Assembly: GCF_006345805.1 (NCBI RefSeq)
Contig: NC_043000.1
Location: 146,444,001 to 146,508,000 of the forward strand
Source of the DNA: Octopus sinensis
Lineage: Eukaryota
DNA length: 64,000 bases
Direction of reading: 5' to 3'
The position numbers and the translations under genes were made by a program. Positions 10,398-60,870 of the stretch are shown piece by piece; the first letter of the stretch is position 1; every line of letters begins with the position of its first letter. The notes under the pieces are model-generated. The model searched no databases. It worked only from the letters and a program-made list of their open reading frames with translations, and was not told the DNA's origin.

Positions 10398-10465
10398 TAA
10401 TAACAACAACAACAACAACGGAAAATACCTTAGGAATGAGAACCCAGGTTCGAAATTTCCCCAAG

Positions 10466-10509
10466 ACACCTGATGAAGGCTGGAGGGTATATCAGCCGAA
10501 ACGTTGTGT
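10466..10509 (+). ncRNA. Minimal type I hammerhead ribozyme
   Basis: ACAC CTGATGA a GGCTG gagggtatat CAGCC GAAA CG TT GTGT: canonical core, palindromic AACGTT in place of stem III. Confidence 0.85.
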
Positions 10510-11436
10510 TAACAACAAACAAGATGAGGACAAAAATCCGTCAATCGTAAATAATGTAAATAATGTACATAATTTCTCATCTCTTAAATATAGAACTGCA
10601 ATATGCACACTATATATACATATGTATGTGTATAAAGACACATACATATATAAAGTAACGATTATTTGCCAACCTATTGTTTGGGGCGAATGCTACTGTT
10701 ATTTAACGCCAGCAGACATTGTCTCCAACTGGCTATACGACACACGATCTGTGTCCATATATTTTCGAACCCCCACCCAGCACAAAGCAGTATCTGTGGA
10801 CCGTACGGTTTCAGGGTTATTTTTTCTTCATCGGCACAGAATTGAGATGGCGCTTCTAATCACCCGTTCGAAAATATATAATTTTCTAAGTGACAAACAC
10901 TTACTGATCTAATAAATAGAAACATGGTTGTCCCTAAATTTTTCAACGAGAGAAATTGAGTAGCAGCATTTTAAAGTAATGTTTATTTGTAAACCTAATA
11001 TGGCAGTCCCGTTTGGGGCGAATGCTACTGGCTATATATACATACACATATCATATATTGAAGCCATCCTCATCAAAATATGACAGATCGTCAGGTCATC
11101 TCTCACGTATGAGTGATGTTAATATTCCGAAACAACTTCTCTGTATTCCATTTTCTCGCCCTCTGTCTCTCCCTGTCTCTTTCTCCCCCTCTCTCTCTCT
11201 TTAGCTTTTAGAGAAGGAATAAAGTAGTTATAGATGTGCTACGTTTGTGTATTATCGTGGTATAACATGACCGTGAGAAAATAACTTCTCTTTCGAACCA
11301 CATAGCTAATGATTCTGTACCACTGTATGGCACCACGGCAATTGTCTTTTACTAAAGTCCCGCGTCGAGCAAAGCCTTGTGGGTGAATTTGGTAGACTGA
11401 AACAGTGTGCAAACCTGCTGAATATGCATATGTCTG

Positions 11437-15428: not shown

Positions 15429-15995
15429 AATTGCAGCGTAGAAGGTGTTTATAAGCTATTTAAGAAACACACAAAAACCGTTAGATTCACTTCAACATTT
15501 AAATTTAACTAGCAGTATCGCCCGGCGTTGCTCGGGTTTGTAAGGGAAATAACTATATAAGCATTTTTAGAGGGTTATAGCCAAAAAATAGCAAAAAAAT
15601 GCATTAAAAATGGAAACAAAATGATGGTAATTTTTTTTTAAATCGTTGACTCATCGTAGACATTTTTAGAGAGTTACTTCCCTTATATAATAGCGAATAA
15701 ATGCATTAAAATGGAAAAAGTGATGGTAATTTTTTTTTTAAATCGTAGACTCATCGTAGACGCACGCTAGTACCCAGAAGGGCTCGATATGAATCACGAC
15801 TATAAGATACCCGGTTTTGGTTAAACTGCACCGCAAAATGTGGGAGTAGTTAGGAATCTAAATCGTAGGAGACAGACACACAACTTGACTTTTATATATA
15901 AAGATTTGCCAAAATATTTTCGTCGCTTTGAGACCGCGACCTGTTCATTGAGAAAATTCCGTGCTGCATCTGAGAAAGTAACAGTTAGTTCATGA
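15429..15995 (-). mobile_element. Family D hammerhead-bearing repeat, split by a Helitron
   Basis: 15429-15508 and 15905-15970 together align to the reverse complement of 60664-60809. Confidence 0.75.
15509..15904 (-). mobile_element. Non-autonomous Helitron, copy 4 (complete, 396 bp)
   Basis: Minus: A|TCTTTATATATAAAA...hairpin...CTAG|T; no target-site duplication. Confidence 0.92.
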
Positions 15996-16099
15996 TATAT
16001 ATGTACGTATGTATGTATGTATGTATGTATGTATGTATGTATGTATGTATGTATGTATGTATGTATGTATGTATGTATGTATTTATGTATATATATATA

Positions 16100-16202
16100 T
16101 TGGCCTGCTCGCTTAGCCAGCGGGGTGGCGTCATTCGAAGGCTAAAACAATGCGAACGCATTGTAACCAGCGATGTGTAACTACATCTGATGGACTGGTC
16201 GG
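16100..16202 (+). mobile_element. SINE family 4, tail-only fragment
   Basis: TTGGCCTGCTCGCTTAGCCAGCGGGGTGGCGTCATTCG... matches the tails at 48378, 53028 and 59558. Confidence 0.85.
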
Positions 16203-16567
16203 AATTTATGTATATACGTATGTGTGTGTAGGCGTATCTGTGTGTGTGTACATGTGTATGTACATGTGAACGTATGTTTATGTACTGATATGTGTCTGTT
16301 CAAATTGTATACATGACTGTTATTTTGTTGAAGGTTGTATACACACACGTAGACATACATATGCATATACATTTATATAAACACGGAGAGAAATATTTAT
16401 TGATGTTGATATATATGTATGTATATGTATATGTATAAATATAATACGTATGTATATATGTATATATGTCTGTATGTATATATGTATGTATGTTTGTATA
16501 TATGAATGTATGTATGTATGTATGTATGAATGTATGTGTGTATGTATGTATGAATGCATTCATGTAA

Positions 16568-17856: not shown

Positions 17857-18559
17857 GTAAGTATGTATGCATGCATGTATGCATGTGTGTATGTATGTAT
17901 GCATGTATGCATGCTCTCGCACGTCTATGTCCGTAGGCACGGTCGCGTGCCTTTTTCTCCTTCCCTTGATATTGCACGACATTAAACAAGTTGAGTGATT
18001 CTTTTATATAATTAGATATTTTGTGCGTTAGTGTATGTATATGTAAATATATAATTCTAAAGTGTCTGTGTAAACAGGTTTGTGTATACGTTTCAGACAC
18101 ACGAGATATGTGGTCAAAACAGACGAAATATATCAACATTTTGAGAATATCTTTTTTTTTGTGCCTCTTGATATTGTCTCGGAAGGGCTTAAATGCCCCC
18201 ACATGTACATACTGTCGCTAACATAGTCGAAGTAAGGTCGATGATAAATTGCTAGGAACGGCTACAAAACGAAATACTTGGCAATGAGATCTTTGTTTTG
18301 TTTCTGTGTAGCGGCTTGTTTCCTAGATCGTTTTTGTTTAATTTTAGCGTTCCTAAGAATTATCAATGTGGACTGGCAAAAGTTGTTTATGGTTATCGCA
18401 GCTGGTATCTTTCATTTAGTCATTCGAATTTCACCGTTTCCGATCAACAGACTGGTTCGGAAACGTGAAATTTGAATCATTAGATTTGAGGTGACAGCTG
18501 CAGTAGCTACACGCACATACATACACAAACACACACACACACACACAGACACAGATATA

Positions 18560-18939
18560 TCTTTATATATAAAAGTGAAGTTGTGTGTCTGTCTCCTACG
18601 ATTTAGATTCCTAATTACTCCCACACTTTGCGGTGCAGTTTAACCAAAACCGGGTATCTTATAGTCGTGATTCATATCGAGCCCTTCTGGGTATTAGCGC
18701 GGGTCTACGATGAGTCTACGATTTAAAAAAAAAATTACCATCATTTTTTTCCATTTTAATGCATTTTTTCGCTATTATATAAGGGAAGTAACTCTCTAAA
18801 AATGTCTACGATGAGTCAACGATTTAAAAAAAAATTACCATTTTTAATGCATTTTTTTGGTATTTTTTGGCCATAACTCTCTAAAAATGCTTATATAGTT
18901 ATTTCCCTTACAAACCCGAGCAACGCCGGGCGATACTGC

Positions 18940-18942
<3 letters not shown>
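18560..18942 (+). mobile_element. Non-autonomous Helitron, copy 5 (complete)
   Basis: A|TCTTTATATATAAAAG...CCCGAGCAACGCCGGGCGATACTG-CTAA|T (fits CTRR). Confidence 0.9.
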
Positions 18943-19003
<61 letters not shown>

Positions 19004-60639: not shown

Positions 60640-60870
60640 TAGTTTGTTAAAACTGAGTTTAGAGATGCAGCACGGATGTTTGTCAGTGAACAGGTCGCGG
60701 TCTTATAGCGACGAAAATATTTTGACAAATTAAACTTAAATGTTGAAGTGAATCGAACGGCTTTTGTGTGTTTCTTAAATGGTTTATAAACATCTTCCAC
60801 GCTGCAATTGTTTTCGTTCCAGCACACGATCTCAGATCAAATCACTTGCTATGCAAGTACATCTCCGTAA
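60640..60870 (+). mobile_element. Family D hammerhead-bearing repeat (pLTR-like) with 3' tail
   Basis: Homologous to 15429-15970 (minus) and extends ~60 nt further at its 3' end. Confidence 0.7.
60679..60729 (+). ncRNA. Type I hammerhead ribozyme variant with G3/C8 core
   Basis: TTTGTCA GTGAACA g GTCGC ggtcttata GCGAC GAAA ATAT TT TGACAAA. Confidence 0.72.

Follow-up and report, generated by a model that had tools for sequence, protein, structure and literature searches.

A minimal type I hammerhead whose catalytic core carries G3-C8 instead of C3-G8 is located at 60679-60729 (+) of a window from Octopus sinensis, the window being the whole analysed stretch of 64,000 nucleotides. The motif is not a lone ribozyme: it lies in the pLTR of a Penelope-like element (PLE) with a putative RT and a GIY-YIG endonuclease, and G3-C8 is the state of this whole element family. 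PLE hammerheads and natural U3-A8 cores were already known; what is added here is a natural G3-C8 core, which is well supported as real. The G3-C8 pLTR hammerhead probably still self-cleaves, slowly and as a dimer, an activity predicted from its sequence. The initial annotation had recognised the hammerhead and missed its membership in a PLE; its conclusion largely holds, on evidence other than that offered there.

Structure and folding of the motif

Sequence inspection and folding placed stems I and II around the core in the order of a type I hammerhead (Table 1). The 7-bp stem I, 5-bp stem II, GAAA, AAUAUU and GUGAACA core described in the initial annotation were confirmed in the sequence, the stems by folding; the extra G at 60693, the UUU cleavage triplet and the G3-U17 pair of the minimum free energy structure (MFE) had been overlooked. 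The family core reads GUGANCA and thus departs from the canonical CUGANGA (C3, G8). A Watson-Crick 3-8 pair together with U4, G5, A6, A9, G12-A14, A15.1-U16.1 and H17 are the commonest letters in both G3-C8 subfamilies presented below. Additionally, the family has typical features of the minimal hammerheads (min-HHRs), namely a 9a base, G10.1-C11.1 and a palindromic 15/16 region that replaces a stable helix III. AAUAUU is the predicted intermolecular helix III, and hammerhead numbering would place the cut between 60722 and 60723.

Table 1. Coordinates of the two hammerhead-bearing copies in the window.
Feature	Position	Strand	Details	Basis
Short 5'-truncated pLTR copy (3' part)	60662..60870	+	Includes the hammerhead and the first ~30 ORF codons	Shared copy ends; same stretch 5' and 3' of RT-GIY-YIG ORFs
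Stem I, 5' arm	60679..60685	+	7 bp with 60723-60729	Sequence and fold
Core positions 3-9, GUGAACA	60686..60692	+	G3 = 60686 and C8 = 60691, replacing C3/G8	
Unpaired extra G (9a)	60693	+	Between positions 9 and 10.1	
Stem II and loop II	60694..60712	+	5 bp (60694-98/60708-12); G10.1-C11.1 (60694/60712); 9-nt loop II	
GAAA, palindrome and U17	60713..60722	+	GAAA (12-15.1) 60713-16; AAUAUU 60716-21; U17 60722	
Stem I, 3' arm	60723..60729	+		Sequence and fold
Element ORF start, cut off in this copy	60779..60870	+	AUG 56 nt past the predicted cut	
Second hammerhead copy, decayed	15904..15971	-	A3·C8; broken stem I	
Second copy resumes past inserted repeat	15429..15508	-	Inserted repeat of ~395 nt	
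Upstream microsatellite-rich pLTR sequence of second copy	15983..16348	-	72% to the UTR of L051	

Both stems formed when the 51-mer was folded (-13.8 kcal/mol, z=-2.6; 3 of 200 shuffles were as good). In the predicted MFE, G3 pairs with U17 and lengthens stem I by one pair. A C3-G17 pair is thought to trap an inactive form (PMC3884650; here and below, published work is cited from the portions of each source available to us), and the predicted G3·U17 pair could act in the same way. A hand-built active dimer reached -25.4 kcal/mol, which is not more stable than two monomers at 2 x -13.8.

No match to any Rfam hammerhead family was found in the 64-kb window among 120 hits at E<=1. This result bears out the earlier expectation that standard searches miss the family, as does the published PLE survey, whose search was seeded with cuganga (available portions of PMC8557442) and which a G3-C8 hammerhead would escape. 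Rfam matches to miRNA and snoRNA families in the window were rejected: all those listed fell below the gathering score, and those viewed overlapped simple repeats.

The second copy, at 15905-15955 (-), is identical to 60679-60729 at 46 of 51 positions, and an insertion of ~395 nt splits it immediately 3' of the hammerhead motif. It was indeed present with C8, as had been noted, and as support for covariation it failed: its 3-8 position is an A3·C8 mismatch, its stem I contains a C·C mismatch and a U·G, and in the fold stem II alone forms (z=-0.2). The second copy is a decayed copy, a single mismatch mutant that offers no evidence of covariation. The interrupting sequence, at 15509-15903, is one copy of a ~400-nt repeat that contains internal duplications as well as nested inverted copies; related sequences lie at 1350-2780 and 18559-18954.

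The host Penelope-like element

At locus L275 (L numbers denote loci), the AUG equivalent to 60779 opens a frame of ~610 codons into the putative RT. A 486-aa RT piece contains, by eye, YVDD and DKS(G), which we take to be RT motifs; Pfam RT gave no match to this piece. The C-terminal GIY-YIG endonuclease was matched by PF01541 (E=4.3e-5, above the cut-off), and it is preceded by a CX3CxxC linker, CQSNCAVC, that fits the CX2-5CxxC defined before EN in the available portions of PMC8557442. By these features, rather than by an RT tree, the element fits an EN+ PLE of the Neptune/Nematis type as defined in that source.

Most copies are ~150-210 nt long and have one of two alternative ends, each followed by (TA)n; they are often arranged as inverted pairs. 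Longer copies have a microsatellite-rich stretch of ~1.4 kb upstream that reaches the end of the GIY-YIG ORF. The order GIY-YIG, UTR and motif on one strand was observed in 9 of 16 long loci, and 7 of 30 GIY loci contained a G3-C8 motif inside the flank. Among the matches listed, the pLTR repeat was also found 5' of the ORF. L341 represents a complete pLTR-ORF-pLTR arrangement whose two G3-C8 motifs are intact, identical and separated by 4,361 nt; of 6 such loci, 2 had both pLTRs. G3·G8 was read in three of four upstream-pLTR copies (L342, L343 and L344), two of which share a deletion.

Two other readings of the host sequence were rejected. A non-LTR retrozyme would consist of short non-coding tandem repeats, each bearing a hammerhead; the copies here are instead scattered or inverted and associated with an ORF, and short direct tandems were confined to a few loci, for example L015 and L028. 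The short copy is also spanned by a 68-codon frame, which is not conserved in the 8-nt-loop and old subfamilies; the real ORF begins at 60779.

Several further features were observed near the copy starts. A splice acceptor check showed that the young family has a branch-like CTAAC, a pyrimidine tract and AG before the motif, of which the old family keeps the AG only. Short copies often start with a G before AGATG (60662-60664; L140, L146, L148, L154, L156) where long copies have C; of 30 copies selected by means of a downstream anchor, 5 had such a G-start. This G could derive from the cap at a start site, or it could mark where a spliced first exon ends. In the L288-L300 group, the pLTR is joined, apparently in frame, to an ORF position ~900 nt further on (L288, L289 and L300 show this join among the matches listed), and the group is apparently an internally deleted multi-copy derivative.

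G3-C8 across the genome

We searched the genome (2.72 Gb, 13,516 contigs) with a 19-base pattern in which positions 3 and 8 were left free, which gave 6,270 matches and 0 in the control. Tabulating positions 3 and 8 over genomic copies, the check proposed in the initial annotation, left its consensus standing: among the first 100 of the 6,270 matches, 93 read G3-C8 and 7 were single mutants. A looser G3-C8 descriptor gave 6,194 matches against 14 for the reversed control; the motif is therefore not a chance occurrence, and the figure mirrors transposition, not function. In public sequencing runs, with no RNA run among those listed as containing it, the element is present in four organisms, in whose contigs no change of at least 3% was found at 60686 or 60691 among the rows listed; in the same contigs, stem II CpG sites decay and loop II varies.

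The individual copies do not covary. Genome-wide, 18 copies were mutated at both positions, against ~8 expected from the single rates, and they comprised U3·G8 (5), A3-U8 (4, a double transition), U3·U8 (4), A3·A8 (2), A3·G8 (2) and C3·A8 (1). With 0 C3-G8 and 0 U3-A8 among these doubles, covariation at 3-8 among genomic copies was rejected. As a side observation, G8 is frequent for a transversion (7 of the 18 doubles, in addition to the three G3·G8 upstream pLTRs), and a small mismatch sub-lineage may have spread.

Covariation between families and subfamilies

Canonical C3-G8 motifs with the same GUC/GAC stem II base gave 1,706 matches against 20 in the control. They form at least two families, one of which has an ORF 51% identical to that of the G3-C8 family, and C17 was read in 25 of 30 C3-G8 sister copies. 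A further group has stems I and II in common with the G3-C8 family; U3-A8 was read in 11 of its 14 copies, which were grouped by flank similarity from a pattern that allowed only A/T at both positions and gave 145 matches in total against 116 in the control. PLE RT remnants were found in 1 of 10 loci of this group.

Other motifs were also observed. At 10465-10512 (+), the window contains a minimal hammerhead that belongs to a different family and has the canonical C3-G8 pair, with its core at ~10470, a 5-bp stem I, a 6-bp stem II and an AACGUU palindrome; a relative is present in L056, just outside the window. L332-L334 belong to a separate repeat, a doubtful hammerhead candidate with a U3-A8-like core, GAAA and weak stems, which gave several identical matches. 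U3-A8-type motifs lacking the 9a base matched the descriptor in L069, L117 and L127, where the flanks are unrelated, and may represent other families or chance.

Within the G3-C8 family, an older subfamily was distinguished, whose descriptor gave 30 matches and 0 in the control. The old set consisted of 29 BLAST neighbours of one copy, itself chosen by the G3-C8 pattern and dropped as the query; the young set consisted of 25 copies obtained via a downstream anchor, after five truncated copies and the window copy were dropped. Positions 3/8 read G-C in 18 of 29 old copies, with no C-G, and in 22 of 25 young ones. Median divergence from the column majority was 14% in the old set and 5% in the young set. 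The flanks examined around old-subfamily copies contained no ORF.

Over 33 columns covering the core, 9a, 17, stem II and inner stem I, the old and young sets share the commonest letter throughout, whereas in the flanks it differs at 20 of 96 columns (Fisher P=0.002). The contrast no longer reaches significance when the changed columns of outer stem I are scored as differences (P=0.12-0.22). Between the old and the young set, N7 went from C to A and the palindrome from AAUU to AAUAUU; loop II and the sixth stem I pair changed as well. At the sixth pair, the old set reads G in 15 of 29 copies with C in 24 of 29, and the young set U in 24 of 25 with A in 24 of 25, a compensated change from G-C to U-A. 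U17 is present in 29 of 29 old and 24 of 25 young copies. A role for U17 as special partner of G3 was rejected, given that U17 also occurs in 8 of 14 copies of the U3-A8 group and, in the published table, frequently accompanies C3-G8.

The initial annotation had taken covariation to imply selection for catalysis. That step does not follow from the genomic copies. Covariation appeared only at the level of families and subfamilies; it favours selection acting on the hammerhead fold and does not by itself demonstrate catalysis. The idea that a double change in one master element disabled the ribozyme and spread by amplification without selection, which agrees with the derivation of all G3-C8 copies found from one lineage, with their decay without compensation and with a high copy number that is uninformative on function, appears most improbable against a core and inner stems left unchanged between subfamilies with 20 of 96 flank columns altered, a stem I pair that changed with compensation and a palindrome that was retained.

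Predicted cleavage and alternative roles

The C3-G8 pair of active hammerheads is established (PMC3088659), as the initial annotation had stated, and residue 8 may supply the general acid through its 2'-OH (PMC6155905). The other point given there as established, that the double swap partly rescues activity, was likewise found in print: in a PLE hammerhead, the C3G/G8C double mutant had its cleavage partly restored (PMC11167929). The min-HHRs are described as cleaving weakly, and only as dimers or with an extended helix III (PMC4209133).

We propose that G3-C8 would have derived from C3-G8, as parsimony suggests, and would have been kept by selection on master elements, since any Watson-Crick 3-8 pair would hold the position-8 ribose in place. 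Helix III is too short alone, and two motifs would therefore pair through AAUAUU, the partners being either two pLTRs of one read-through RNA or two separate RNAs. Cutting of each motif after U17 would then reduce tandem transcripts to single units. Because the genomic copies come from uncut RNA, only part of the RNA would be cleaved.

Several observations argue against efficient cutting. In BLAST alignments of 30 anchor-picked copies, some of which are two ends of one insertion or duplicates, none started at the cut site; the start fell at G3 or earlier in 25 and within the motif in 5. The predicted G3·U17 pair, the stability of the modelled dimer and the G3·G8 state of three of the four upstream repeats point in the same direction. 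In a rather unlikely alternative, the fold is kept as a structural signal in PLE RNA, for RT or protein binding or for translation, with little or no cleavage. The derivation of copies from uncut RNA and the G3·U17 wobble in the MFE would suit such a signal, and in the Anolis element cleavage was dispensable for insertion in vitro and no RNA-seq ends were reported at the cut site (available portions of PMC11167929). A structural signal would not obviously preserve all 11 catalytic-core letters, nor would it obviously limit the families to Watson-Crick states at 3-8.

The 3-8 pair might also act as a tuning knob, although we hold this to be unlikely: G3-C8 would have been fixed to slow cleavage, so that most RNA stays uncut as a template for reverse transcription and the part that is cut, 56 nt ahead of the AUG, is translated cap-free. 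If so, the C3-G8, U3-A8 and G3-C8 sister families in one genome would form a natural test series for the purpose of PLE hammerheads.

A very unlikely alternative assigns cleavage to translation instead of transcript trimming, with a cut 56 nt 5' of the AUG removing the cap and leading to cap-independent translation of the ORF. The motif does sit just upstream of the ORF start, and translation initiation from viral 5' UTRs that carry type I hammerheads depends on self-cleavage (PMC13725137); this precedent comes from fungal and plant viruses. We retain slow, partial self-cleavage of a dimer as the probable reading of the G3-C8 motif.

Comparison with known systems

In the literature search, natural G3-C8 cores were not encountered and engineered cases only were returned; Lünse 2017, Martick & Scott 2006 and Przybilski & Hammann 2007 lay outside its coverage, and any of them may list natural cases. 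No natural G3-C8 was found in the available portions of PMC6765202, PMC11014351, PMC2920678, PMC10085705 and bioRxiv 2026.07.22.740005, or in those of supplement file 2 of PMC4209133. A search of the literature on octopus PLE hammerheads also returned no natural G3-C8.

The closest relatives of the motif are the metazoan PLE min-HHRs (Cervera & de la Peña 2014, PMC4209133). Like it, these are type I hammerheads located in pLTRs, with a base between 9 and 10.1, G10.1-C11.1, a palindromic 15/16 region and a common U17, and they occur as thousands of dispersed, truncated copies and inverted pairs. In contrast, the cores in the available portions of that source are C3-G8, with a U3-A8 variant in Schistosoma and one U3·G8 row, and stem I has 4-5 bp there versus 7 bp here. 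The natural U3-A8 hammerheads (Perreault 2011, PMC3088659; Schistosoma Cercyon PLEs, PMC4209133) resemble the present family in having a compensated 3-8 change. U3-A8 requires two transitions and keeps a purine at position 8, whereas G3-C8 requires two transversions and places a pyrimidine there.

At the level of the element, the Neptune/Nematis EN+ PLEs (PMC8557442) resemble the present one in its putative RT, its CX2-5CxxC linker, its C-terminal GIY-YIG and its pLTRs, as well as in its inverted 5'-truncated partners, two alternative 3' ends and (TA)n flanks. CUGANGA-seeded and Rfam searches can miss what is the largest hammerhead family found by descriptors here (6,194 G3-C8 versus 1,706 C3-G8 matches with matched patterns), and thus some 'hammerhead-less' PLEs may be search artefacts.

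The engineered C3G/G8C hammerhead of Anolis Poseidon (PAc) carries the same swap in a PLE hammerhead and is partly active (PMC11167929). In both elements the motif adjoins the ORF start, and uncut RNA is used for insertion; the AUG is inside the motif in PAc and 3' of it here. The PAc swap was made in the laboratory, whereas the G3-C8 pair described here is natural in a family of more than 6,000 copies. A core encountered in print only as a laboratory rescue mutant is fixed across two or more subfamilies of a very successful retroelement lineage in an animal, and natural evolution lends support to pairing of positions 3 and 8 in the active site. With three different 3-8 pairs among them, the sister families offer material for asking whether PLE hammerheads must cut.
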